DNA of 20,000 nucleotides from IMG/VR virus record IMGVR_UViG_3300001592_000009, one strand, 5' to 3'. The number at the start of each line of letters is the position of its first letter. The stretch's first letter is position 1. The stretch is from an uncultured virus (IMG/VR IMGVR_UViG_3300001592_000009). Lineage: Duplodnaviria > Heunggongvirae > Uroviricota > Caudoviricetes. Position numbers and translations under genes: made by a program. Shown one piece after another: positions 6,632 to 19,910 of the stretch. The notes beneath the pieces are model-generated. The model searched no databases. It was not told the DNA's origin and saw nothing but the letters and a program-made list of their open reading frames with translations.

Positions 6632-8551
6632 TTATGCACGGCCGTAGCCGCCACGGTAGCCGCTGTAGCTGTAGCCGCGCGAGGAAGAGCGCGGCTGGTA
6701 GCCAGACCGGTAGGTCGAAGTGCCGCTGGACAGCGAACGGCTCACGAAGTCGGGCGAAGGAACACCACTGCGCAGCTCGTCTGCGTTGAGCGGGGTATTC
6801 ACCGTGGTCGGGATGTTCATCTGGCTGATGGCGTTCGAGATGGCCTTCACGAAGTCATCCGAGAAGGTCACGCGAGCGCTGTAGCGATCGATGGTGGCCG
6901 ACTGGTTGCAAGCATCTTGGATGATGCCTTCGCGGATGGCGCAGTTGCGTTCGGGAGACACGCCGGGGCGGTTCACGAAGGTGTTGCTGTACTCGAAGAT
7001 GACCGCGGGGTCGTTCTTGTACAGGTTGCAGATCGCCGTCAGGTCGATGTTGGCCAGATCCTGGATGCTGCCATCCGAGGCACGGTAGCGCCCACCCGGC
7101 ACCCGCACGATGTTGGTGAACATCGGCATCTTATCCAGGTCGAAGAAACTGCCGAAGTGGTTGTCGGTCAGCTCCATCAGCGCGTCGAAGATCTGGCGGC
7201 GTGCGTCGTTGTCACCGGAGGCGGCAGCGGCGAACACGTTCAGGTACCAGGACTGAGGGCCAGCTTCAGGGCAATCCATGGAAATCACCAGACCTTGACG
7301 GAACAGTGCCGTCAGGTAGGCGTTCACCTTGGGGATGTCGTTGGCGAACTTCTCGATGTTCACTTCACGACCGAAACCACCCAGGTCTTCTTCGCGATGG
7401 ATGTTGGCCGGGATGTTCAGGGCACCGATGTTCACGATATCCACATCACCCTTGGTCACACCCTTGGACTTGGGCAGGAAGCCTTGGATCCAGGTATCGC
7501 CATCAACCAGCGCCAGCACGCTCGAGATCGCCATCAGCACTGCCGCGGGAGACGTGGCAAACTCGGTACGCACGCTGGTCAGCACCAGTTCTGCGACGAA
7601 GGACTGCGTCGGCAGATTCTGGTTGTAGCCTGCGGGCTGAAAGCCGAAGTTCTGATGCTGGTGCAGGGGCGACCAGATCGGCTGCAGGAAGCCGCTCAAT
7701 TCGCAGATCTGCGCCACGCTATCCGCCACGTTCACGGTACGGAGACCGGTGAAGTTGTTGGCGTTCTTCTTCTGGCTGGTGTAGTTGATCAGCACCGATG
7801 CGCGCTGCGGGTTGCCGACGATGTCGACCACCTGGTGGTTGCCAAAGGTCACGTCGATCACGAAGCGGCAATCGGGATCCATCTGCGCCAGGTTCAGATC
7901 ACCGAAGTTGCCAGTGACGCCGTTGATCGTGGAGACGCAGGCCAGAGCGGCGTTGCGGGCCACGTTCTCGAAGTCTGCCGACATGTTGCCAGTACCGACA
8001 GCGGTGGAGACAGGCGGCTGGACATGACCAGGGACCACCATGGCATCGGCACTGTAGATGTGGCACGAGGGGAACTCGGCCGTCACAGCGTCGTAGGCCT
8101 TCTTCTGCAGCACGTCGTCGAAGGCGTCGCCGGTGACCATGTTGACACGGACTTGCTGGTTGTCCATGTTGACCATGCGAGGCGTCAGCTTCTCACCAGT
8201 GGCTTCGAGGATCAGGGTGTGGTAGGCTGCCACGTTGCTGCTGACCTTGGGCATGCGGACCGCCACCACGATGGCGGAGAAACGCATCTCCTGGGCGTTC
8301 TGGCGATTCAAGCTGATGATCTTCAGCTCTACACCTTCAACGATGTCCTTGAACAGCTCATTGATGGCGGTACGGAACTTGGTGAAGTACTCACCACCCA
8401 CACCTGCGGCCACGGGGGACTTGGTCAGGTTGGTTTGGTGGAAGGACCACATCCCGCCCTTCTGGGTCTGGGCAGCAGCACTCTGGTAGGCGTCCTGACG
8501 CGCGCCGGTGTTGNCTTGGTCGTTGCTGGTGTTGTCGTCTACGATGGCCAT
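6632..8551 (-). CDS. chmA: Chimallin, phage nuclear shell protein (phiKZ gp54 / 201phi2-1 gp105 family), 639 aa
   Basis: About 640 aa with a low-complexity N-terminus. Recognisable segments include FSAIVVA, AYHTLILEATG, VTGDAFDDVL, ICELSGFLQPIW, NIGALN, ISMDCPEAGPQSW, DLANIDL and ARVTF, plus a G/Y/S/R-rich tail. Codon bias is very strong, and the gene lies next to the gp52-like genes and DNA polymerase as in phiKZ. Start revised to ATG 8551 (MAIVDD...). Confidence 0.88.
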   Translation of the reverse strand: MAIVDDNTSNDQXNTGARQDAYQSAAAQTQKGGMWSFHQTNLTKSPVAAGVGGEYFTKFRTAINELFKDIVEGVELKIISLNRQNAQEMRFSAIVVAVRMPKVSSNVAAYHTLILEATGEKLTPRMVNMDNQQVRVNMVTGDAFDDVLQKKAYDAVTAEFPSCHIYSADAMVVPGHVQPPVSTAVGTGNMSADFENVARNAALACVSTINGVTGNFGDLNLAQMDPDCRFVIDVTFGNHQVVDIVGNPQRASVLINYTSQKKNANNFTGLRTVNVADSVAQICELSGFLQPIWSPLHQHQNFGFQPAGYNQNLPTQSFVAELVLTSVRTEFATSPAAVLMAISSVLALVDGDTWIQGFLPKSKGVTKGDVDIVNIGALNIPANIHREEDLGGFGREVNIEKFANDIPKVNAYLTALFRQGLVISMDCPEAGPQSWYLNVFAAAASGDNDARRQIFDALMELTDNHFGSFFDLDKMPMFTNIVRVPGGRYRASDGSIQDLANIDLTAICNLYKNDPAVIFEYSNTFVNRPGVSPERNCAIREGIIQDACNQSATIDRYSARVTFSDDFVKAISNAISQMNIPTTVNTPLNADELRSGVPSPDFVSRSLSSGTSTYRSGYQPRSSSRGYSYSGYRGGYGRA

Positions 8552-8575
8552 CGTTTTCTCTTTCTTTCGATTGTA

Positions 8576-8591
8576 GGACTGTGCACAGTCC
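8576..8591 (-). promoter_or_regulatory. Perfect 16-bp palindrome / hairpin in the chmA leader
   Basis: GGACTGTGCACAGTCC is its own reverse complement and lies about 25 nt upstream of the chmA ATG. Confidence 0.45.
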
Positions 8592-8885
8592 CATTGTTTC
8601 CAGGAGTTTTGGGAAAAGGGTACTCCAAGCTGACCCATTGCTACTAACCTAACCTACGACATCCGTAAGGCGTCGTCAAGTAGGATATACGTTACTGAAA
8701 CTCTGCTTGAAACAGACCTGTGGAGACTGCGGGCAGAGTACGGGGTGAGTGCACCGCGACCGTATTCACGATCGACTGGTGTGCTCCATAGATATAGGAA
8801 GTTGTAGAATCTTTTTACTGAAAGGGTGTAAAGAGGGACATCGTTTGAACGACAGCATCAGAAAACATCCTAAGGACACCTCTTC

Positions 8886-9962
8886 ATGTATTCCCTTTTC
8901 AGCGATCCTCCCAAGAAGCTGGGAGGGTCTATCCAACTTCCCCGGTTCCATGATGTAGAGAAAGCTACTATCAGGGACATTGAGAAGATCACGGACTACT
9001 ACCGCTACGGATCGTTTGCGGTAAAAACCAACCACATCCTGGTGAGACTGATTCTGAGCATGAATCTTCCGCTCAGTTATGACGCGTCTCAGTACTATGG
9101 GTTGGCTACCCAGCGTGCGCTGTACGTCGCCACAAGCCTAGGGATGACATCGTCTATCTCCAAAGGAAGATTGCATCCGGGTCTTTTTTACTACGGCTGC
9201 CCTGAGATCCTTATCGCTTACACGGATCTGGAACGACCTTTTGCCATGGAGACTTATTGGAAGGAGCTCTCCCCTGTCAAGGTGCTGAACCACCCTCTCA
9301 ACAACATGGGGTACACCATCCCCGATGGCGTGGAGAGAAATACCGAGACAGGTCTGGTTTCTATCGCGATCGACATACCGGAGCTGATGATGCAGTACCG
9401 AGGGTTTCGACTGGAACAAAGAGCCAGGTCTGAGGAAGGCAGTGATGAATCTCTAGGGATCCATCACTTTGTCTATCGCTATGTCCTGACCTCCATGTTG
9501 AAGAGCCAGACAGACCTTGCGATCTTCAACCGCCTCTACAACCTCTATGATGGCGCTCCCATGGGGGAATGTATCAAGAGACATCCGTTCCACATCACAG
9601 ACTACCGAGATTTGCTAGACAAACAGCTGGAAGAAGTCAGTCAGCGTCTAAGTAAGCTGGCGCTGCCCTACGGCAATGTGTTGGAACAGATCCCTCGGAT
9701 CTATAGCGAACATCCGTTCAGTGTTCCAGACATGGCGGAGACTCGCCAGGTATGGTGGGCGTTGTTTCTTTCAAGATACAAAGCCATCGACTATCTCTGG
9801 TCCATCTGTGGAGAGAAGGGGAGAAGTTTGAACGGGACACTGATCAATCAGTTGAAGCTGGATGTGAGAAGCTTCCGTATCGAGAACACCTGGAAAGCCA
9901 TGCTCCCTCCCGAGATGGCTACCGATGTTCAATACAACCTCAAGAAGTTTGAGAACGTCTAG
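8886..9962 (+). CDS. Conserved phiKZ-like phage protein (gp52-like, divergent from chimallin)
   Basis: 358 aa with AAGGA upstream. MYSLF..., ITDYYR...VKTNHILVRL, IAIDIPELMMQYRGF and QVWWALFLSR resemble the conserved gene next to chimallin in phiKZ-like phages (from recall plus synteny). Confidence 0.75.
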   Translation: MYSLFSDPPKKLGGSIQLPRFHDVEKATIRDIEKITDYYRYGSFAVKTNHILVRLILSMNLPLSYDASQYYGLATQRALYVATSLGMTSSISKGRLHPGLFYYGCPEILIAYTDLERPFAMETYWKELSPVKVLNHPLNNMGYTIPDGVERNTETGLVSIAIDIPELMMQYRGFRLEQRARSEEGSDESLGIHHFVYRYVLTSMLKSQTDLAIFNRLYNLYDGAPMGECIKRHPFHITDYRDLLDKQLEEVSQRLSKLALPYGNVLEQIPRIYSEHPFSVPDMAETRQVWWALFLSRYKAIDYLWSICGEKGRSLNGTLINQLKLDVRSFRIENTWKAMLPPEMATDVQYNLKKFENV

Positions 9963-10204
9963 TGGGCAAACTGATGGATGATGCCACTGATACTGTACAT
10001 GGGGAACTTCATCCACCTGGCGTGATGGTGGTCTGGAGACCCAGTTGGTACGAAGAAGGCTTCTTTCTTCGCCATGTCAATACAGTAGATGTGGTCATCC
10101 ATCGACTTGGAGAGTATCTCGGTCTGCTCCATGTTCAGACCTTCGATGTGACGATAGACTTCTTTGAGGAACGGAACATGGTTCGTTTCAATTTCAGTTT
10201 TCAT
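9959..10204 (-). CDS. Small hypothetical protein (81 aa), antisense insertion
   Basis: MKTEIETNHVPFLKEVYRHIEGL...IIHQFAH. It has the C-ending codon usage of neighbouring genes and fills the gap between two plus-strand genes. Its TAG overlaps the upstream gene's TAG at CTAG 9959-9962. Confidence 0.5.
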   Translation of the reverse strand: MKTEIETNHVPFLKEVYRHIEGLNMEQTEILSKSMDDHIYCIDMAKKEAFFVPTGSPDHHHARWMKFPMYSISGIIHQFAH

Positions 10205-10225
10205 TTTTATTAAAGGTAGTAGAAG

Positions 10226-11041
10226 ATGGACTTGATCACCTATGCGGTCGAGAGGATCCTGAACGTGGTGCCTAGGGAAATCTTGAGACTTGCCTATATC
10301 GGCAAGCAGGACTACCGCGGAGCACCCAAGAACCTCAGCACAGAGATCCGGCGAAAGACCGTAGAAGGTCGCGTAATCATCGACACCAACATCGTAGGTG
10401 GTGAGACGATCCACGTCGACCTCTCGGGCTTGAAACCGGTCTTTCATGACCAGTATCACTATGTCTTCGAAATTCCACCTGAACGGGTGAATCATCGCAA
10501 GATCATGACCGCTCTCTCTGTCAACTACATGAGCTATAACAAGGCTCTCAGCAAGTACCTCCCTGGCGTACCTGCGGGCACTGGTGGTAATGTCAGTGAC
10601 GTGATGAGTGCTGCTCATAGAGCTTTCGATAGCCGGAGCAATATCCCTGTCGTTTCGAACTCCGATGTCGATATGGTCAGTGACTACACGGTTCGGATAC
10701 GGAACCATCTCCATACCGCAAGTGTAGTGCAGTTGCGATGCATCGTGGAGAACGAGGAGCGACTGGCTAACATCTCCATGCGGAATGCTCCAGCCTTCGC
10801 TACACTCTGTCTGTATGCTGCCAAGGCCTACATCTACAAGGAACTCCTCTTGACCCTGGAACGTGGCTATCTGGAACATGGTCAGGAACTCGGAGCTGTC
10901 AAGAACTACGTGGATGGTCTCAGTGACGCGGAGGAGAACTACCAGACGTATCTGGAGGAAAACTGGGCAGCTATCTCCGTCATGAACGACCGCCCTCTCT
11001 ATGACGATCTGCTCAAGATGCAGCTCGACCCCGGTATCTAA
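10226..11041 (+). CDS. Conserved phiKZ-like protein, probably virion structural
   Basis: 271 aa with AAAGG upstream. ITYAVERILNVVPREILRLAY, RVIIDTNIVGG, AAKAYIY and GQELGAVK...DAEENYQTYL resemble a conserved chimallivirus gene found near the DNA polymerase. Confidence 0.7.
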   Translation: MDLITYAVERILNVVPREILRLAYIGKQDYRGAPKNLSTEIRRKTVEGRVIIDTNIVGGETIHVDLSGLKPVFHDQYHYVFEIPPERVNHRKIMTALSVNYMSYNKALSKYLPGVPAGTGGNVSDVMSAAHRAFDSRSNIPVVSNSDVDMVSDYTVRIRNHLHTASVVQLRCIVENEERLANISMRNAPAFATLCLYAAKAYIYKELLLTLERGYLEHGQELGAVKNYVDGLSDAEENYQTYLEENWAAISVMNDRPLYDDLLKMQLDPGI

Positions 11042-11053
11042 AAAGGAAGTCCC

Positions 11054-11383
11054 ATGGATCAAGTTATCCAGATCGTTACNTATCTCGCATTGCTGAGCGC
11101 AGCTGCTGAACGCTTTACGGACATCATCAAGCGATTGGTGTTGTCCAAGTACACGGTGAATGGCGCTGTCTATCAGCTGATCGCGGCAGGCTTTGGTTGC
11201 TTTGTCGCTTTGGTAGACAGCCCTCAGTTCTCNGCAGTTGATGTTGGGAAATACACACAAGTCATCCTCATCGGTCTGGCGGTCTCTGGAGGATCAGGCG
11301 CTTGGAACAGCATCCTGACTGTGCTCCAGGATTACTCCAGATCTCTCAAAGAGTCACTCGCTTCTGCAAAGAAAGAATCTTGA
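11054..11383 (+). CDS. Holin-like small membrane protein
   Basis: 109 aa with AAGGA SD, 2-3 hydrophobic helices, a GLAVSGGSGAWNSIL motif and a charged C-terminus. Confidence 0.55.
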   Translation: MDQVIQIVXYLALLSAAAERFTDIIKRLVLSKYTVNGAVYQLIAAGFGCFVALVDSPQFXAVDVGKYTQVILIGLAVSGGSGAWNSILTVLQDYSRSLKESLASAKKES

Positions 11384-11388
11384 GTCNN

Positions 11389-11430
11389 ACATAGCCCTAG
11401 GGGAGCCGTANGGCTCCCCTAGGGTCTGTG
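11389..11430. terminator. ACATAGC-flanked hairpin between convergent genes
   Basis: CCCTAGGGGAGCC-gtan-GGCTCCCCTAGGG lies between the holin-like stop (11383) and the reconstructed polymerase stop (11434). Confidence 0.7.
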
Positions 11431-11433
11431 CTG

Positions 11434-13558
11434 TCAATANCCTAAGTCGCTGATCATCCTGTCTTTCTTTGGGAAGTAGCCCAAAGANTCCAGGACGTTT
11501 CGNTGTGCCTTGGTAAGAGCAAGAACGATNCGGCGAACATCCATCGCTATNTTAAGTTCCTCAGGCTACTCCCTTGGAAACGCAGTGGTCGATAGGGATA
11601 GCTATCGAGGAAAGCGTATGTACCTCTTTCTCTTTGATCCATTCTACCAGGAGTCGGCCAGTCTGGCTGGTAGAGATCTGTTCCACCCACCCTTGGAGCT
11701 TAGACCTTTTATCAAGGTCCAGAGGGATGCGTACAGCCCCATAGGGCGGTTTGGATACCGACCCATAGGTTGGAGCAAAGCAACGCTCCCAGAGCGTGTA
11801 GTAAGCGTAGTTAGAATGCTCCGCATCCTGACTGTAGGACGATGCTTCCTTGATACGAATCCGCTTCAAGTACTTCACCTCTCCTCTGTACAGAGAATCG
11901 ATGATCTCCCTCTCGATGTCAGCCACTTCTTTGAGTTTCTCCAGGAGACTAATAGGCTTGGCCTTGATCACGTCATCCAGGATAGACTGCATAGTCTTAG
12001 AGCCTGCTTCAATCAGGTTGACTGGAACTGAAGAGTCTTTGAGGTGCACACCCTTGACATCAAACTTGGGAGCCTTGTAGACGTTACCTTCCTTGACCTT
12101 CATGCAAGTGTAATAGTGTTTCGCTACGGAGGTCTGTGCGAAGACTGGGAAGACATACTCAGGCTTCATGGCCAGGGTGAACAAGCGTTTCTTCTCCACG
12201 TTCATGTTGGCAGAGAAGATGCCCAAGAGATGCGCAATGGCCTGGGTAGCGATGTAGCTAACCGCTCCCCCTATGGCGTACTCTTCATCACTGAACTCCA
12301 TCTTGTTGAAATACCAGAGCACCCAGTTGTCCACAGAGAACATGGTGGAGTCTGTATCTGACAACACTACCGATCTCCGAGTCATGAAGGGGATGGTGGC
12401 GATGGTGGCAGGGCTGTTCTTGGTCAGGAAGAAGGCTTTGAAGAGAAGTCGGTACTTTTCCACAGCCTGCTCGATGGACTTGCAGGTGTTTGCTACGATG
12501 CACTGCTTGTCTTTCGAAATCTTCGAGTAGTCTTTACCGATGCCTTCCACGATGGAGATGCAGCTCTGGTGTGCGAAGTTCACGATGGCTTCATCGGTAG
12601 TCCGTATGACAGACACAGGGTCATCCATATCGACATCGCTACCTCTACGAGCAAGATCGGTCAGAAGTCCACGAATGAACGTGTTGTTGAGTATCCGGAG
12701 ATGGTAAAGATCCCCCGTGTAAACCACAGAAGCCCTCTCCTCTGGACTTAGTTTCTCCACAAAGTCCTGAATGTCTCGACTGTGTCTGCGGTCAGACCAG
12801 TAAGGCTCGGTAGAACGGTGGATACACTGCATGACGTCATCCACTGTGGGGTACGTCAGGTTGTAATGGCTAACGGCCTGCCGGATGGTGTCGCTGTCTG
12901 TCTCCTTGACAATGGAGATCAGGTTATTGAGTGCGATGTCCGGAGTATGGTAATGGCGATTGCCTTCAATGAGGCGTTCGTTGGACGCATTGCTCAAGGA
13001 AGACATGGAGCGCGTCATCGAGGTGAGGGTTGAGTGTGCACTCTTGTTAGAGATGATCACACCCTCTGCCACAAACCCACCACTACAAGCATTGTTGTCG
13101 CGCTTAGCGCCGTCCTGGGCTTGGTTGTAGTACTTGGCAAGACCAACCTCGTTGTTCGCCTCATACGCTTGCGACATCTTCTTGAACTTCGTACGCAGCC
13201 GCACGTTNNCGTCCATAAAGTCCACGATCAGAGAGGACTTCACACTCGGATGAAGATAAGTCGTGAAGGTGGGTGCGAGGATCTCTTTGTTCTGAAGGAC
13301 ATCTTGGATGTATCCGTACAAAGGGATGGTCTTCTTGTACTTGTCACCATTCTCCTCCCGCTGATAGTAAACCACAGTAGGGTTGAATGGCTTAATCTCT
13401 TTGGTCTTCAGCTTCTTTCGAAGATGGGCCAGACACTGTTCGTAGGGCTTCCCCAGCATGCGGGATGCGTAAAGAGCCGACTGCCTCACCCAGTCCCCGA
13501 TGGGGTCCAGGGATCTGCGGTACTGGTCTGGTTCCAATAGAAACGCATTTTTAGACAT
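11434..13558 (-). CDS. Family B DNA polymerase catalytic subunit, phiKZ gp50-like (~707 aa; 1-nt frameshift at ~11566)
   Basis: Contains the motif B-like AKRDNNACSG, motif C VLSDTDSTMF, AKHYY and KGVHLK. No 3'-5' exonuclease domain is evident, consistent with the split phiKZ polymerase. Start revised to ATG 13558 (MSKNAF). Removing one base at 11566 extends the frame by 43 aa to ...SLGYFPKKDRMISDLGY*. Confidence 0.88.
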
Positions 13559-13625
13559 GGTTGATCGGATAGTGTAGTCAGAAGATGACCTAGACCGGGT
13601 CGTTATTTCCAGATCTATGTAGATC

Positions 13626-14759
13626 ATGGAAGAACTTAGTGAAGGAAGAAACATGCCATTAGGACCGATGACCACGTATTATGTCCGCACAAGACATCGA
13701 AGCAGGAATGGCAAAGTGTCTCCATGGGCGACTGTCAAGCAGTTTAGAACAAAAAGTGAACTCTGGTTAGAGACGGCTGCGATCAATCGACCAGGACAGG
13801 CGTCTTCTAAATATGGACGTTCTGTTACCATGTCTGGCGATGGGATGTATTTTGCAGCCACTGACAGCGGTAAAAAGCGATACAGCTACGTGTATCGCAA
13901 AGAAGGTGTCAACTGGATCCTGGATGCTACCTTGGCGCATCCGAATTACAACATGGGGTACGACACGGACCTTAGCTACGATGGGAGTGTCTTCGTGGTG
14001 GGTGGGTATAACAACGGGACACGCACAGCCGTTTATCGAAAAACAAACGATGTCTGGAGCAGTGCCTACATCTTAACGTCAGACAACTACAACAACCATG
14101 GCTATTCTGTCTCGCTCTCTGGAGACGGTTCTACGGTGGTTGCGTCGTCCCCGACAAGAAACTCCGTTCGTGTCTATAACTGGAACGGTTCAGCCTACAC
14201 TCTGACCACAACTCTTAATCGTTCTGGAGTATCTAGTCTCGGTACCAGTTGCGCTATATCAAAAGACGGTTCTACTATCGTGGCTGGATCTACCGTAGCT
14301 AAAACCGCTGTGGTGTTCAGGAAAGTGAACGGGACATGGAGCTACGTTCAATCCATAGTTTCAGGATCGTCAAACTTCGGTATCGCTGTTGACATATCTG
14401 ACGACTGTGAAAGAGTGGCTGTGGGTTCTACCAGCGCCAAGAGCGTCTACATCGGACTCCTGAACTCTTCGACATCTCTCTACGATCTGGAGACCATGCT
14501 ATACAGTCCTAGCAACCCTTCGGAGTTTGGAAGATCTGTAGCCATCAGTGAGAACGGAGCGGCGGTTGTTGTGGGAGCCAGGGGTGGTGTTTCGGTCCAG
14601 AGACGAACAGATCAGGGATGGTTCGAACAACAGTTCCTAAACCCTTCTATCACTCCTAACAACGATGACAGCTTTGGGATGAACGTGGCGGTGGACCGCA
14701 GAAACACATCTGCGGTGATCGGCTATCATGCCAGCAAGGTCTTTGTCTTTAGCATCTGA
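13626..14759 (+). CDS. FG-GAP-like beta-propeller repeat protein (putative virion or adhesin module)
   Basis: About seven repeats of the type [FY]G.SV.[IL]S.DG..[IV]VVG...VY: YGRSVTMSGDG, MGYDTDLSYDG, HGYSVSLSGDG, LGTSCAISKDG, FGIAVDISDDC, FGRSVAISENG, FGMNVAVD. An alternative start at ATG 13653 follows AAGGA. Confidence 0.8.
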   Translation: MEELSEGRNMPLGPMTTYYVRTRHRSRNGKVSPWATVKQFRTKSELWLETAAINRPGQASSKYGRSVTMSGDGMYFAATDSGKKRYSYVYRKEGVNWILDATLAHPNYNMGYDTDLSYDGSVFVVGGYNNGTRTAVYRKTNDVWSSAYILTSDNYNNHGYSVSLSGDGSTVVASSPTRNSVRVYNWNGSAYTLTTTLNRSGVSSLGTSCAISKDGSTIVAGSTVAKTAVVFRKVNGTWSYVQSIVSGSSNFGIAVDISDDCERVAVGSTSAKSVYIGLLNSSTSLYDLETMLYSPSNPSEFGRSVAISENGAAVVVGARGGVSVQRRTDQGWFEQQFLNPSITPNNDDSFGMNVAVDRRNTSAVIGYHASKVFVFSI

Positions 14760-14770
14760 AAAGAAAAAAC

Positions 14771-14817
14771 GACATAGCGCCCAGGTAGAGCCGTGAGGCT
14801 CTACCTGGGGCTGTGTT
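14771..14817. terminator. ACATAGC-flanked hairpin between convergent genes
   Basis: CCCAGGTAGAGCC-gtga-GGCTCTACCTGGG with ACATAGC / GCTGTGT outer pairing and an A-rich run on the left. Confidence 0.75.
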
Positions 14818-14821
14818 TGCT

Positions 14822-15241
14822 TTAAGCGGCGGGTGGNTCGCTGACTGAGATCGCGTAGTCCCTGAGACCTGCTGCATTCAAGGCGTTACGGATGCGATCC
14901 GCATCACCCATGGAGGCGGTAGGGAAACTGACCGTGATCTGAACATGGTCGATCAACGCGATGGAATCCAGATCTATCCACTTGTCGCAGAGAACGATAT
15001 CTGATCCGTTCTGTCCTTCAAAGACATACCAGATCGCTCGCTCCACGTCATTGACCGTCCCGAGAGGAAGGGTCGGGTAGATGGAACGCCAGAGATGATC
15101 AACAGATGCAAACTTCCGCGCCACACTGGCACTGCATCCAATGATACTGGCCTTGGCTCGCTCGACCCGGTTTCCCAGGAAGACGGGCGACAGTGTATTA
15201 AAACTGTAGACCTTGTTGAGTTCAAAAAGCGGGGTTGTCAT
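14822..15241 (-). CDS. Conserved phiKZ-like small protein (gp49-like position, upstream of DNA polymerase)
   Basis: 139 aa with GAGGAG SD. VYSFNTLSPVFLG, IYPTLPLGT, WID and RIRNALNAAG resemble the small conserved gene preceding the polymerase in phiKZ-like phages. Confidence 0.7.
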   Translation of the reverse strand: MTTPLFELNKVYSFNTLSPVFLGNRVERAKASIIGCSASVARKFASVDHLWRSIYPTLPLGTVNDVERAIWYVFEGQNGSDIVLCDKWIDLDSIALIDHVQITVSFPTASMGDADRIRNALNAAGLRDYAISVSXPPAA

Positions 15242-15683
15242 GGACTCCTCTGTGGTTGTTGGTAGGAACCCCCTCCTCCGCAGGATAGGCGTTCAACACC
15301 AGGTAGGTGGCGGTGACTGACTCCATCACAAAGATGAAGGCGTGGTCTCGGTCGATAGAGTATGTTTCACAGAGCTTGGGGTAGAAGGCGTTCCAAACCC
15401 GTACTGCGAAAGAACGCACCTGGTCACCGAATCTTCGAATGAGGTTGAAGTCCACCTCATCCTCTGTGAAATTGATCGTCATGAAGTTGGGAACCGACAT
15501 GATGTTCAGCATGTAGGTTTGAAAGTCTTCATGGAAAGCGTGAACGATCTGGCTGACGATCTCAGCGTAGATGGCTTCAAGATGTTCTTGGTCATTGGGC
15601 TGGCGACTTTCCTGGATGTAGCCCATGATCTCATTCCTTAGCCGATGTCCATCGTGTTCAAGCCCAATAACAAATCGTGGCAT
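15222..15683 (-). CDS. Hypothetical protein (153 aa)
   Basis: ORF overlapping both neighbours in an operon-like chain, with GAGG upstream. Confidence 0.7.
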   Translation of the reverse strand: MPRFVIGLEHDGHRLRNEIMGYIQESRQPNDQEHLEAIYAEIVSQIVHAFHEDFQTYMLNIMSVPNFMTINFTEDEVDFNLIRRFGDQVRSFAVRVWNAFYPKLCETYSIDRDHAFIFVMESVTATYLVLNAYPAEEGVPTNNHRGVHDNPAF

Positions 15684-16027
15684 TCAACTACCTCTATCCG
15701 GATGATGTTAGGGAAACGTAGATGGATAGCCACCAGCCTCCTATGAGGATCTGAGAAGCGATCCACTAGCTCCGAAATGGATGCCACCAGCTCTTTCAGA
15801 GAAGCGACCACCTCCTCCTCTTCGAGTACGGATGGTAGCAACTCTATGTCCTTCACACGGTCTTCGATGTAGCTCTGGATCTCCAGATGGGATTCCAGGA
15901 AACTGTGGAAGATCTCGGTAAGCTCATCACTGAATGTCTTCAGGCATTCGTCATGCTGGTAGAGATGTTCAATGAAGGGCTGAAGGGAAAGTGTCTGGGG
16001 CAGATGTGCGTAGATGACTGACCTCAC
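15638..16027 (-). CDS. Hypothetical protein (129 aa)
   Basis: GTG start after AAGGAGCAGG. Acidic, probably helical protein. Confidence 0.65.
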   Translation of the reverse strand: MRSVIYAHLPQTLSLQPFIEHLYQHDECLKTFSDELTEIFHSFLESHLEIQSYIEDRVKDIELLPSVLEEEEVVASLKELVASISELVDRFSDPHRRLVAIHLRFPNIIRIEVVECHDLLLGLNTMDIG

Positions 16028-16094
16028 TACCTGCTCCTTTTTCTTTTGTAGTCCGCTACCCTATTAGCAAGAGAGAGGATCTAATTTCCCGCAC

Positions 16095-16544
16095 TTACTC
16101 ATACAGCGTAGAAGATTCCATGCTTGCTGAAGTAGGACCTACCCAATGGTCAAAGAGGTAGAGTCCGTCAAAGTCGATGTTCTCCCGCATAATCTGATCG
16201 CACAACTCTTCATCAGCGTCACTGATAATCAGTGAGATGACAAAGTCTAGGTTAGACCATGCTTCTGGATCAGGTGCCGTATCTTTGTCGAACAGCATGT
16301 CGTAGATGTCGTCATACCTGACGGATATAGCATCCCACACCACGTAGTCGGAAGCACTGCTTTCTGAATTACTGGCCAGAGCCGTCGCAATGATGTCTTT
16401 GACTGGAAACAGGTTCAGGAACCGACAAACCACGTTGTGCTTGCTGTGCTCGGGTTCGTCGTATCGATACTGTAGCCTCCATTTTTCCAGAGTCCTAGAG
16501 AAATCAGCAACGATCACCTTGGGGTGGTAGGTGAATGAAGGCAT
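16095..16544 (-). CDS. Hypothetical protein (149 aa)
   Basis: Acidic ORF starting 15 nt after the upstream gene's stop. Confidence 0.7.
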   Translation of the reverse strand: MPSFTYHPKVIVADFSRTLEKWRLQYRYDEPEHSKHNVVCRFLNLFPVKDIIATALASNSESSASDYVVWDAISVRYDDIYDMLFDKDTAPDPEAWSNLDFVISLIISDADEELCDQIMRENIDFDGLYLFDHWVGPTSASMESSTLYE

Positions 16545-16559
16545 GGTGTTACAGGATGC

Positions 16560-17354
16560 TTAACAACCTTCTTCGTCGAGACGGATGGCGTCCAGGTGTT
16601 CGAAGATACCTCTGTAGTACTCCACGACCCGGTAATCCAGACCCTTCTCGATGATGAGTTCCGTGTCATTCATCCGCATGGTCAGCAGATGATGTTTGTC
16701 TTTCCCGATGAACTCATCGACCCTGTTGATTACTGAATCGAAAGCGGTTGGGTAGTTTTCCTTGTACAGTTCGAGTCCTTCTCGCGTCACGTAGGTCAAC
16801 TCGTTCAGCTCGCTGCTCGGGAGAGCGCTGATAGGCAGGCAAAGGCTGTCTCGATACAGGAGACGATTCCAGACTTCTACCTTCAGGAGATGGACTCCTG
16901 TGTAGATCTCTCCGGGCGAAGAGGTGAAGAACTTAGACACGGCACGGGGGTTGCGACAGAAAAGTTTGAGTTTCCCGTCTTTCAACGTCATGTCACCACG
17001 ATAGACCGGCTGCGTGCAGTTGACGAAGTCTTCGTAGGTGAGGATATCGCAGACACTTGGATTGATCTCCGCTTGTTGAGAACTCACCAATCCTTGTTGT
17101 TCCCCGTTCCTCGGGTTGACGAAAGAATAGACTGGCTCAATAGAGCGAGAGAAATAAAGACCCTCGGGACCTGGGATAGATTCTTCCAAAACCACTGGAG
17201 GGAGTGCCTTGGCGTATTTGGAGAGATCGATCACGAGCACGGCCTCTACCACGGCCAGGACTTCGAAGAACGACTTATAGTCGAGAGAGTCGTAATTCAC
17301 CTCAGTGCTCCGCAGGTAATCTGATCGGTAGTTGAGGCGGCTGTGTGTGGACAT
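16560..17354 (-). CDS. Hypothetical protein downstream of phuZ (~264 aa)
   Basis: ATG 17354 after GGAG/AGGA. The C-terminal IIEKGLDYRVVEYY segment looks like a conserved phiKZ-like motif (recall only). Confidence 0.7.
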   Translation of the reverse strand: MSTHSRLNYRSDYLRSTEVNYDSLDYKSFFEVLAVVEAVLVIDLSKYAKALPPVVLEESIPGPEGLYFSRSIEPVYSFVNPRNGEQQGLVSSQQAEINPSVCDILTYEDFVNCTQPVYRGDMTLKDGKLKLFCRNPRAVSKFFTSSPGEIYTGVHLLKVEVWNRLLYRDSLCLPISALPSSELNELTYVTREGLELYKENYPTAFDSVINRVDEFIGKDKHHLLTMRMNDTELIIEKGLDYRVVEYYRGIFEHLDAIRLDEEGC

Positions 17355-17483
17355 AAATCCTGTCTCCAAGTGTGGAAGGGTGGTGTTTCATAAGACTTCC
17401 TAATCCAGGGCTTTTTAACCCGGAGATATATCCACCCCTTACCTGTGGATAAAAATGCGGCTGTGGACCAGCATAAGGGCCTG

Positions 17484-17512
17484 GCAGAGGGTGTCTTGAC
17501 GACACCCTCTGC
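17484..17512 (-). terminator. Hairpin after phuZ (terminator or stability element)
   Basis: GCAGAGGGTGTC-ttgac-GACACCCTCTGC, a 12-bp stem 14 nt after the phuZ stop. There is no clear U-tract. Confidence 0.5.
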
Positions 17513-17526
17513 TCAGGTTTCAGCGC

Positions 17527-18201
17527 TTAAAGAACGATACCGCCAACAGCCGTCTTCACAGACGACAGATCAATGCCACGAACCGGGTTGACGCGATAGA
17601 GCTCCTCAGCCTGTTGAAGCTGGTGACTCAACCGGTCCACGATCCCGGAGAACGACCCCTGGACCGTGTGGTAGTGGATCGGTGTCGGGATAGAGATCGC
17701 ATCGCTGGCATCCTGCGAGATCTCGCCGAAGCTGTGGTAAGACAGCATCATGCCGGGATCAGGGTTCTCACCGGGGCGGATCAGGGTGACAGCCGAGGAA
17801 ACAGCCTGACCCTTCTCCAGAGCCTTGAAATCACGGCTGTTCTGGCAACGGAGTTCCACTAGAGCCGGTTCGTACTTGGTCATCTTGGAATGATCCAGGA
17901 AGTGCTGGAGATCGCGAGTGTCCAAGCCATGGTTTTGGCCAGAGAACAAAGCAGCCAGCAGGAGGATGTTGACCTTGGCCATGGCATCCACGTCCGCCAT
18001 GCTGTTCTCCTGGTTGTTTTCCAGGTAGATGGAGCTGACCGACTTGTTCTGCGACTTGCAGATGTTGGCATAGGAGAGAACGGTACCGCGGGTATTGCGA
18101 ATCTCTTGTTCACAGGTCAGGGAACCGATCTGGATCACCACCACCATCTTGCCACGGGTCAGCAGCTCGCCAACCAAGACCGGACCAACCACAGAACCTG
18201 A
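17527..18201 (-). CDS. phuZ: PhuZ phage tubulin, exon 2 (224 aa)
   Basis: Begins SGSVVGPVLVGELL, the second half of the tubulin signature loop and the following helix. Contains T7-loop-like NHGLDTRDL and ends ...GGIVL*, resembling the PhuZ C-terminal tail. Confidence 0.92.
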   Translation of the reverse strand, partial: SGSVVGPVLVGELLTRGKMVVVIQIGSLTCEQEIRNTRGTVLSYANICKSQNKSVSSIYLENNQENSMADVDAMAKVNILLLAALFSGQNHGLDTRDLQHFLDHSKMTKYEPALVELRCQNSRDFKALEKGQAVSSAVTLIRPGENPDPGMMLSYHSFGEISQDASDAISIPTPIHYHTVQGSFSGIVDRLSHQLQQAEELYRVNPVRGIDLSSVKTAVGGIVL

Positions 18202-18943
18202 CGTTATCTTCACTACAGTTCGTTAGGCTGTAGCCGCGCCATTACGCGCAGCTGCATGTTTCCATGCAGACGAGACTATATCAATAACTTACTAAGGCAG
18301 TGGCTTGTTGAGTCTGGTAACACTTAGATTGGGTATGTTAACAGACTTGAGGACTCTTTCAAGATCGATGGTTCTGTAGAACTTTCTCTTGGTTTCACTA
18401 CAGTAAAGACCGACCGAAGGATAACCGTACCTGTCCAGCTTCTCCTTCAGTTCTCTCAGCTTGTCTTTTCTTCTCACGCGACCGTCCGAAGACACCTCAT
18501 AGCTCGGAAGTTCTTTTATCGTTCTCCATTCGTTCATGATTCTTAAATATTTAGCCATTAAGCCGTCCCAATTACGGCACCTTAATAAGTTAACCCCTGT
18601 TTCCACTCACTTGAGTGTACACGCTGGTCAATGCGTTAGTCGTTGAACTCGCTCCGTGGCCTTACGGCTGTAGGAGATCAGCTGCGGATTACCCATTCTG
18701 CCTAGTCTCGGTAGACTGATCGATGACAAGTCGATTGTTCAGTATTCCGGTTTTCACAGTGGTTTCTAACCATCTCTTAGAGTTTTTACTATTCCGAACA
18801 CTTCCATTACTGGGCTCGGTACATACGTGTATTTCTACCGCATGGTAGTATCTAAGAGCTTTAGGGTTTCCCCGCAATTAAGGGGTTTGTCACTGCAACA
18901 TCACTGTCGCAGCGGGCATGAACTCGACTTAGGCCGAGAGTTT
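18202..18943 (-). mobile_element. Group I self-splicing intron (IA-like, with P7.1/P7.2), 742 nt, in phuZ
   Basis: The 5' exon ends in U (GGU) and the intron ends in G (..GAUAACG). Core elements: P AAUUGCGGGGAA (18868-18879), Q AAUCCGCAGC (18681-18690), R GUUCAACGACUA (18637-18648), S UGAUAUAGUC (18274-18283). Pairings: P2 CUGCGACA-GUGA-UGUUGCAG, P3 AACCCCU/AGGGGUU, P7 GACUA/UAGUC, P8 AACUUAUUAAGG/CCUUAGUAAGUU, P9 CUGCAUG-GAAA-CAUGCAG. Removing the intron restores the reading frame. Confidence 0.93.
18292..18537 (-). pseudogene. Intron-encoded NUMOD4 homing endonuclease remnant (HNH domain missing), 81 aa
   Basis: EWRTIKELPSYEVSSDGRVR...LKEKLDRYGYPSVGL...FYRTI is a NUMOD4 motif. The HRLVA...H.N...N nuclease core that normally follows is absent. 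The ORF lies in the P8 loop. Confidence 0.8.
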
Positions 18944-19252
18944 ACCACCTGAGGAGGAATGGAAGACGATGTTGTAATCGCCGGGAGGGTGGGTGTGGAG
19001 AATGTCCGGCATAGCTGTCACAGCAGCCTGGAGGTTCACGGAGCGGTCCTTACCGGAGCCATCGGTGCTTTCATCGTAGCCCTTGATGTGGTAGAAGGCA
19101 GCATCCCCTACGGGAGGTTTGTTCGAACCGGAAGTGTCGATGAAACAGGTTTTGATCTGAGCGAAGCCGGGCATAGTTTTGCCGGGGTTGTGGAAGGTTT
19201 TGNCGATGTTGGTAGCAGCACCGCCACAGCAGTAGAGAGTGAGAGAAGCCAT
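18944..19252 (-). CDS. phuZ: PhuZ phage tubulin, exon 1 (103 aa)
   Basis: AAGGA SD. LYCCGGAATNI (T1), FIDTSGSN (T2), DGSGKDR (T3) and YNIVFHSSSGG (start of the T4 signature) are tubulin/FtsZ GTPase motifs in PhuZ form. The spliced product is 327 aa. Confidence 0.92.
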
Positions 19253-19283
19253 GGGAGAAAGTTCCTTTTGGTTGGGTTGAGGT

Positions 19284-19475
19284 TTAGGCAGCTGCGAGTT
19301 CGATCATGGTCGCCAATTCCATGATCGCGTACTGGATCTCGGGAGAGATGTCAGTTGGAGATGCTTCAGTGTAGCCTGGGGAAGTCAAATACTTCACCAC
19401 GATGGCAGCAGCGGCTTCGAGGGATGAGAGTTCGTTGAGAACTTCCTTCTCGTCGTCAGAAAGAGGAATAGTCAT
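19284..19475 (-). CDS. Small acidic hypothetical protein (63 aa)
   Basis: ATG after AGGA, co-oriented and immediately upstream of phuZ. Confidence 0.6.
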   Translation of the reverse strand: MTIPLSDDEKEVLNELSSLEAAAAIVVKYLTSPGYTEASPTDISPEIQYAIMELATMIELAAA

Positions 19476-19502: not shown

Positions 19503-19910
19503 TTATGTTTCCTTCTCACGGTGTTCAATGAAGGCGACGACTGGGTTCTCGCTGTGCTTTTTGATATCTCTGATCTTGCGAGAGAGCCAGAGTTCATAAA
19601 AGAGACCAGAGAGTTCTCGAGACACCTTTGGGCAGAAGATCACGAACTGGTTCGCTTCCAGGCGATCACTGCGAGCATAGAGACATTTCACTGTCCCCTG
19701 GAGTTCAGATACTTCGGATACGACCTCGGTGAGTTGTTCTCGCGTGAAGAGTCGGTTAGCCGTGATGAGAGCTTCGAGATAGTCGCCCTCTCTTCGGATG
19801 ATGGGAGCGAAGAGATTGAGCTTCCGTAGTACGGCTTTGACAGACTTCTCGTCGGGATAGCCTTCAATGAAAAGAGAGCCGGATGTACTCTGAACAGCAT
19901 TTGATGACAT
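19503..19910 (-). CDS. Hypothetical protein (135 aa)
   Basis: ATG after AAGGA. No recognised motif. Confidence 0.65.
   Translation of the reverse strand: MSSNAVQSTSGSLFIEGYPDEKSVKAVLRKLNLFAPIIRREGDYLEALITANRLFTREQLTEVVSEVSELQGTVKCLYARSDRLEANQFVIFCPKVSRELSGLFYELWLSRKIRDIKKHSENPVVAFIEHREKET

Follow-up and report, generated by a model that had tools for sequence, protein, structure and literature searches.

The phuZ tubulin gene of a nucleus-forming jumbo phage is split by a group I intron with a putative homing endonuclease remnant

The 20,000-nucleotide stretch of DNA analysed here (the window), derived from an uncultured virus of the Caudoviricetes (IMG/VR record IMGVR_UViG_3300001592_000009), carries on its minus strand a gene for the phage tubulin PhuZ which is divided by a 742 nt group I intron (18202..18943). 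Exon 1 (18944..19252; 309 nt), with an ambiguous base (N) at position 19203, comprises codons 1 to 103 and ends in ...HSSSGG (TCA GGT GGT), while exon 2 (17527..18201; 675 nt) starts with TCA GGT TCT, the beginning of SGSVVGP, and comprises codons 104 to 327 and the stop codon. The exons match positions 4-101 (e-value: 4.4e-26) and 102-299 (e-value: 8.2e-38), respectively, of the PHROG profile phrog_4733 'tubulin PhuZ', and these matches abut at 101/102 with neither gap nor overlap. The exon 1 open reading frame (ORF), starting at 19252, continues for four codons into the intron before reaching a stop, giving an ORF of 107 amino acids, and the 228 amino acid exon 2 ORF opens with a GTG in the 3′ tail of the intron, 12 nt (four codons) ahead of exon 2. 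Removal of the intron yields a continuous reading frame of 327 amino acids, which is identical to the database protein P0011 at all residues except the X arising from the N at 19203; the exon 1 translation corresponds to P0011 residues 1-103, and exon 2 is 100% identical to P0001 and P0011. A word-indexed protein search with exon 2 returned nine proteins, 7/9 of which are full length (327-341 amino acids), with P0011 included in the top cluster.

Furthermore, P0011 aligns without interruption across the HSSSGG/SGSVVGP junction with solved PhuZ/TubZ chains (9pm9_C; e-value: 3.1e-31, 3zbp_A; e-value: 1.7e-19, and 3r4v_A; e-value: 6.8e-14), in agreement with the joined 327 amino acid PhuZ that had been proposed in an earlier reading of the bare letters, made in the absence of database searches (the sequence-only reading). 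A weak match to the Pfam Tubulin domain (Bitscore: 21.3, under the cut-off of 33) likewise spans the S-G-G-S-G-S stretch. These similarities suggest that the phuZ product is a member of the PhuZ family, with a likeness to the solved PhuZ/TubZ structures. The motif HSxSGGSGS is kept across 16 full-length PhuZ relatives, and the split point lies between GG and SGS of this conserved S-G-G-S-G-S stretch, at codons 103/104. The stretch probably corresponds to GGGTG(S/T)G, the tubulin signature, a reading backed by its conservation and by the weak Tubulin-domain match. Four further PhuZ relatives of 486-514 amino acids (P0026, P0044, P0046 and P0079) have an N-terminal extension of 170-190 residues, which in P0026 combines a signal-peptide-like start with an SLT transglycosylase domain (Pfam; e-value: 4e-10); an extension of the P0026 type is either a real fusion or the result of two genes being called as one. 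Immediately after the phuZ stop codon is a GC-rich long inverted repeat (17480-17517), which also shows a reverse self-match; it has no T-run and a terminator scan made no call.

The intron is preceded by a U at the 5′ splice site (18944) and ends in ...AUAACG, with its terminal G (18202) forming an omega-G directly ahead of the 3′ exon. Both the exon ends and this terminal G bear out the coordinates and the U to G junction that had been drawn from the letters. The assignment of the intervening RNA to the group I introns likewise holds, as positions 18940-18252 of the minus strand match the full Rfam model RF00028 (positions 1-253 of 253; Bitscore: 67.1; gathering score: 50; e-value: 2.4e-15), the sole Rfam family matched in the window. 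The same ...AUAACG tail is found in L001, which together with L002 represents metagenome contigs of phages approximately 97% identical to the window phage, and in L022, an IMG/VR record encoding a PhuZ that is 37% identical to that of the window. The 3′ core of the window intron (18213-18278) shares 92.3% identity over 52 nt with an intron of phage 201phi2-1 that interrupts the RNA polymerase beta gene.

A consensus fold was derived with RNAalifold for the 5′ domain of the window, L001 and L022 introns, which predicts, all on the minus strand, the helices P1 to P6, with an extension of P1 and a long one of P5, and a pair of hairpins located between P7 and P3′. In the predicted P1 (18915..18946), the exon GGU and intron A1 pair with U26-G27-C28-C29, with a U.G wobble at the splice site and a closing extension hairpin; P1 (columns 4-7 with 32-35) is paired in 3/3 sequences and the extension hairpin has three compensatory pairs. 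P2 (18891..18914) consists of 10 bp with a GUGA tetraloop, is 100% paired and contains three pairs that have changed on both sides. The 5′ half of the core (18592..18887), delimited by cmscan and the consensus fold, comprises P3, P4, P5 with its long extension, P6, the P7 5′ strand (18641-18637), the two hairpins and P3′. The P8 5′ strand (18578..18592) pairs over 15 bp with 18285-18299 and encloses an ORF in its loop, while the 3′ segment (18213..18278) holds the P7 3′ strand (18278-18274), P9 with a GAAA loop, P9.1 and P9.2. Over the 90 pairs of the 5′ domain, 97.4% of the cells are paired and 29/90 pairs are compensatory, with changes on both sides, versus 0-5 in controls in which the partners were slid by 1-3 columns, and 0/500 shuffles attain the observed pairing values. 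All 18 pairs of P9, P9.1 and P9.2 are kept (100% paired; three compensatory), P7 (GACUA/UAGUC) shows a U-A to C-G change in L022, and in the latter P8 is formed by 9 bp of other sequence. The comparison thus points to a conserved fold in which the core helices P3-P8 are held by compensatory change, and it supports the core elements P2 to P9.2 named in the sequence-only reading.

Group I introns of subgroup IA are characterized by extra P7.1/P7.2 hairpins between P7 and P3′. The two hairpins predicted at this place in the window intron, the second of which has two compensatory pairs, are P7.1/P7.2-like, and the intron may be of an IA2-like type. At the 5′ end of the intron, two exon 1 fragments from other contigs, P0017 and P0019, end in GGELSA or GGKLST, while the window encodes GGKLSA (18929-18943); because these endings differ, variants exist within the first 12 intron bases, including base 1, which is paired in P1.

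The ORF within the intron (18292..18606, minus strand) comprises 104 amino acids as listed, with a likely ATG at 18537, and its insertion point in the P8 loop is evident from the cmscan alignment. Its product matches NUMOD4 only (Pfam; e-value: 7.2e-11), with no HNH match. The intron measures 1732 nt in both L001 and L002, where its P8 loop harbors an ORF of 434 amino acids with both NUMOD4 (Bitscore: 39.1) and HNH_3 (Bitscore: 25.0; cut-off: 24.8) domains. Relative to the L001 product, residues 81-410, including the HNH domain, are absent from the window ORF, with the frame kept. The deletion junction (18363..18378) is visible as an overlap in the BLAST alignments of the window against L001 and L002 and consists of the one remaining copy of a 16-nt direct repeat, with 990 nt of L001/L002 gone. 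The window ORF is thus the remnant of a predicted NUMOD4+HNH homing endonuclease after this 990-nt loss. The predicted L001 endonuclease shares 25% identity with proteins in PhiKZ-like phage records and approximately 38-41% identity, in the N-terminal third only, with I-HmuI-like proteins, and its matches include an Enterococcus phage record annotated as 'DNA endonuclease I-HmuI'. An endonuclease-alignment scan of IMG/VR, in which 80 of 511 loci were kept, gave a full-length match only for L026, on the same contig as L022. The other kept loci were rejected as relatives, as they share just the generic NUMOD4/HNH N-terminus.

The same insertion site is occupied in a distant PhuZ gene. Among 20 PhuZ loci in IMG/VR, 19 are uninterrupted and one, L022, is split exactly at residue 103/104. 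The L022 record (164,582 b) is positive for chimallin, the phage nuclear shell protein (e-value: 7.7e-84), and its homologous intron of 1712 nt follows GGTGGT, has core blocks with 69-81% DNA identity to the window intron and encodes an endonuclease of 411 amino acids that is 42% identical to that of L001. The L022 intron also shares 78.4% identity over 88 nt with the RNA polymerase beta intron of 201phi2-1. Three more RF00028 matches are found elsewhere in this record (G001:C1), at 35742-36080, 84628-84991 and 86672-87091 (Bitscores: 57.5, 47.4 and 37.8, respectively). Two further proteins, P0006 and P0008, whose PhuZ sequences are 52-53% identical to that of the window, open with M(V)KIT, the tail of the intron in translation, and continue with SGSV. 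When 1.84 billion representatives were searched with HMMER, 1032 relatives were obtained at E <= 0.001, and among the 150 listed only P0089 (220 amino acids) resembles an exon 2 fragment; it may be another intron-split phuZ.

Exon 1 ends in GGTGGT in all three intron-bearing alleles, while the second glycine codon ends in C, A or G in 15/19 of the intron-less IMG/VR alleles. The phuZ gene of phage Goslar (L106; MK327938.1; CDS Goslar_00201) is uninterrupted, and 17 consecutive bases are identical to the window exon junction; the site in Goslar-type phuZ genes (L106; L023-L025) reads ...GGTGGT followed by TCAGGTTCTGT... No phuZ break was seen in isolate-phage records among the matches listed (60 best and 60 spread, overlapping, of 189). 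Three IMG/VR loci recovered with an exact 17-nt pattern over the 3′ splice site (L003-L005) were discarded as chance matches, with no intron, PhuZ or endonuclease similarity, and none of the 20 pattern matches from an IMG/VR search with the exon 2 protein alone is a relative.

Both split and unsplit forms of phuZ occur among close relatives of the window phage. P0011 itself is recorded on 13 contigs, and its cluster at 90% identity has 64 members, of which 15 are listed. Six of these are full-length proteins of 327 amino acids (contigs up to 116,412 b), and 9/15 are shorter, including fragments of 107 amino acids, with a GGKLSA-like end, and of 216-228 amino acids (contigs up to 198,026 b). 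Fragments such as P0015-P0019 (107 and 216-228 amino acids) are the expected mis-annotation products of a split phuZ, as anticipated by the sequence-only reading, which held that annotation would yield two fragments.

Four sequencing runs (X5, X6, X13 and X15) were examined as Logan contigs; X15 alone is on record as RNA, and contig depth was left out of any estimate of expression. The short form of the intron, with the decayed ORF, is present in an 805-b contig of X13 which bridges exon 2, the intron and exon 1 (18169-18973), and also in X6, while X5 and X15 contain the form with the full endonuclease. Furthermore, two exact intron-less joints were found: the X13 joint has the serine codon TCG instead of TCA, and the X5 site reads GGC GGC TCG, all of these differences being synonymous. 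Because of these synonymous differences from the intron-bearing allele, the joined contigs of X13 (on record as 'DNA?') and X5 ('probably DNA') are read as intron-less DNA alleles and not as spliced RNA. Empty, full-endonuclease and decayed phuZ alleles therefore coexist in related phages, and the screen for intron-plus and intron-minus alleles suggested earlier has returned both, with L001, L002 and L022 on one side and the X13/X5 joints and 19 IMG/VR loci on the other. In X5, summed contig depth over the intron core (18188-18335 and 18558-18631) is approximately 7,500-18,000, versus 12-80 elsewhere, and many joints skip the ORF (18283 to 18600), with 22-34 other letters in between. ORF-less group I introns of other genomes are abundant in X5 and share the core of the window intron.

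The intron is far less divergent than its exons. Between the window and L001, differences are found at 2/742 intron and 32/984 exon positions (Fisher p = 1.8e-6), and the two intron differences (positions 181 and 578) leave all predicted helices paired. Similarly, L001 and L002 differ at 0/1732 intron and 12/984 exon positions (Fisher p = 5.4e-6). The differing exon codons, numbering 32 and 36 in two comparisons, are all synonymous, and the exon differences come no closer to the splice sites than 22 nt (upstream) and 81 nt (downstream). The intron-plus fragment P0018 has the exon haplotype LLNRGK, as do the intron-less P0021, P0022 and P0024. The low intron relative to exon divergence would point to recent homing. 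As a whole, the pattern fits, but does not prove, a scenario in which homing carried the intron through a population that had already diverged, after which the endonuclease decayed in the window lineage.

The window also encodes chimallin (6632..8638, minus strand; phrog_4795; e-value: 1.8e-59), a DnaB-like helicase and a DNA polymerase, and on the basis of these three genes it is assigned to a nucleus-forming jumbo phage (chimallivirus). A megablast search of 17400-19400 against isolate phages gave no match, and the closest PhuZ matches among 50,697 phage records share approximately 30-35% identity. A 377 amino acid ORF (13626-14759, plus strand) with an FG-GAP repeat (Pfam; e-value: 4.7e-11) adjoins the DNA polymerase gene at its start. 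This ORF is absent from the otherwise collinear L001 and L002, representing a 1.1-kb indel (13641-14749). A second indel is formed by approximately 294 nt at 19552-19845 which are missing from L001/L002, the flanks being directly joined there; it falls in an ORF of 135 amino acids (19503-19910, minus strand) with no family match.

We propose, with a probability of roughly 0.85, that the phuZ gene of this chimallivirus is interrupted by a mobile self-splicing group I intron, the homing endonuclease of which has decayed in the window copy. Most likely, the phuZ pre-mRNA adopts the ribozyme fold and splices itself with a guanosine cofactor, which would join GGU GGU to UCA GGU and give a mRNA encoding the intact 327 amino acid PhuZ. 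The ancestral intron probably carried a NUMOD4+HNH homing endonuclease gene in its P8 loop, the product of which would cut or nick intron-less phuZ during co-infection, with the intron being copied in by repair. Recombination between two short direct repeats then probably removed 990 nt of the endonuclease gene in the window lineage. Because of this loss, the window copy would, under the proposal, be capable of splicing and incapable of mobilising itself, and as such would represent the decay stage of a homing cycle. The further suggestion of the sequence-only reading, that the GTP level couples splicing to PhuZ activity, has found no support. The spindle may depend on self-splicing, as that reading also proposed.

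Several observations weigh against this proposal. At the Rfam gathering score, neither L001/L002 nor 14 IMG/VR loci including L022 gave a match, and in the genome search the L022 intron scored 36.1 bits for RF00028, under the cut-off of 50; long introns are missed in a default Rfam search because an ORF of approximately 1.3 kb sits in P8. The covariation derives from just two truly distinct sequences, P1 is uninformative in this regard because it is invariant in all three sequences, and inspection by eye for a P10 pairing gave none that is convincing. Ligated exons with the letters of the intron-bearing allele itself, the GGTGGT to TCAGGT junction which the sequence-only reading had proposed to look for in metatranscriptomes, were not seen in the contigs of the four runs, which leaves splicing neither shown nor refuted, and the contigs of the RNA run X15 contain the unspliced full-endonuclease form only. 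Furthermore, the synonymous-only divergence of the exons may predate the arrival of the intron. Finally, the available passages of one study describe the phuZ gene of PhiKZ as dispensable, since it tolerates many transposon insertions and has been deleted (PMC12676376), and because of this dispensability the intact exons are weak proof of splicing.

The last point bears on the alternative that fares best, although it is improbable, namely that the intron no longer splices and phuZ is a pseudogene in a phage without a spindle, like some chimalliviruses. The tolerance of PhiKZ to phuZ loss would accommodate such a state, as would the absence of spliced RNA from the contigs of the four runs and the endonuclease decay already seen in the window copy, and the title of a cited paper refers to a nucleus-forming Erwinia phage without PhuZ. 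The ribozyme, however, differs from the full-length copies at only the two positions noted above, with all predicted helices paired, both exons are intact and encode a protein identical to that of the intron-less allele, and the short form was found again in the contigs of two more runs, X13 and X6, all of which favors a functional intron. A very unlikely alternative holds that phuZ is a gene in pieces, the 107 and 228 amino acid ORFs being translated apart and reassembling as a tubulin without splicing. Both fragments are indeed open, with exon 1 running on for its four codons and the GTG standing four codons before exon 2, and a cited title refers to a split ribonucleotide reductase which retains function. 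The break, however, disrupts the conserved S-G-G-S-G-S loop, the two pieces are separated by a complete ribozyme with conserved, covarying helices, and the GTG start is itself part of the intron 3′ tail. Least likely of all is a metagenome mis-assembly that placed the intron in phuZ, for although the abundant group I core segments of X5 (depth 16,000-18,000 over 18188-18335) could seed chimeras, the same junctions recur in independent contigs (L001, L002, the 805-b X13 contig and those of X6) and L022, an unrelated record, is interrupted at that very site.

Within one phage population, phuZ is found with an empty site, with an intron whose endonuclease ORF is intact and with an intron whose endonuclease ORF has decayed, which under the proposal would make it a compact natural record of the homing cycle. 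A more speculative, and on balance unlikely, extension is that the HNH endonuclease of the phuZ intron serves as a weapon or reproductive barrier between co-infecting chimalliviruses, attacking intron-less phuZ in a shared nucleus in analogy to the part played by PhiPA3 gp210 for RNA polymerase. The excerpts of the PhiPA3 study place gp210, an HNH nicking homing endonuclease, in a putative group I intron of the gene for the beta subunit of the virion RNA polymerase (Birkholz et al. 2024, PMC11620839). Were the analogy to hold, synonymous variation at intron-less sites, such as GGC GGC TCG and the non-T glycine codon of 15/19 alleles, would mark escape from cleavage, and the Goslar phuZ, with its 17-base junction match, would be a candidate target for an endonuclease of the L001 type. 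A weapon role of intron endonucleases between jumbo phages would moreover be testable in phuZ, a gene whose loss is tolerated in PhiKZ, and since phuZ is dispensable there, it would be one of the few cases where what an intron costs and what it gains could be measured without killing the phage.

Group I introns with HNH endonucleases at the catalytic motifs of phage genes are textbook elements. The element described here is of this kind, while phuZ appears to be new as its host gene, and the finding as such extends known biology and does not change it. The view of the sequence-only reading that the introns of phiKZ-like phages lie mainly in RNA polymerase genes agrees with the available portions of three papers (PMC11620839, PMC11077065 and PMC12676376), to which the DNA polymerase gene of Goslar is added by the excerpts of another (PMC13648698); phuZ would join these intron-host genes. 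Its statement that no intron was known in a phage cytoskeletal gene has also stood, with none described in phuZ in the results of a full-text literature search, including the excerpts of two reviews (PMC12908238 and PMC13282480). Since pipelines report two fragments, surveys of PhuZ in nucleus-forming phages can miscount the gene, and if it is read as fragments, a knock-down or antisense design can fail to target the actual phuZ mRNA.

The td, nrdB and sunY introns of phage T4 belong to subgroup IA2, and decay of their endonuclease ORFs is known in nature. Like the phuZ intron, they interrupt phage protein genes and carry an ORF in a peripheral loop, and they have extra hairpins between P7 and P3′, as predicted for the phuZ intron, but their endonucleases are of other families. 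I-HmuI and I-BasI are encoded by HNH-endonuclease introns in the DNA polymerase genes of the Bacillus phages SPO1 and Bastille, respectively; these are likewise group I introns in which a peripheral loop encodes an HNH endonuclease of the nicking type, but are found in phages of Gram-positive hosts and in a DNA polymerase gene. Going by the excerpts of the study cited above, the PhiPA3 gp210 intron resembles the phuZ intron in that it occurs in a chimallivirus, follows conserved catalytic residues without a gap, carries an HNH endonuclease and is lacking from the allele of a related phage. Its host gene, however, encodes an RNA polymerase subunit rather than a cytoskeletal tubulin, and its endonuclease is intact, with nicking and a competitive advantage both demonstrated, whereas the window copy is without the HNH domain. 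The endonucleases of the two introns are related only remotely, given the 25% identity of the L001 protein to PhiKZ-like phage records. Similarly, the self-splicing intron of Goslar gp068 (DNA polymerase), with its homing endonuclease gp069, splits a conserved gene after the active site and causes annotation to truncate the protein, as described in the available text (PMC13648698). The host gene here is, in contrast, phuZ, which in Goslar itself is uninterrupted. The best isolate-phage DNA match to the 3′ core of the window intron is the RNA polymerase beta intron of 201phi2-1, although this match is confined to the P7′-P9 segment and both the host gene and the remainder of the intron differ. 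Since the 201phi2-1 intron matches those of both the window (92.3%) and L022 (78.4%), the ribozyme belongs to a lineage common to chimalliviruses.

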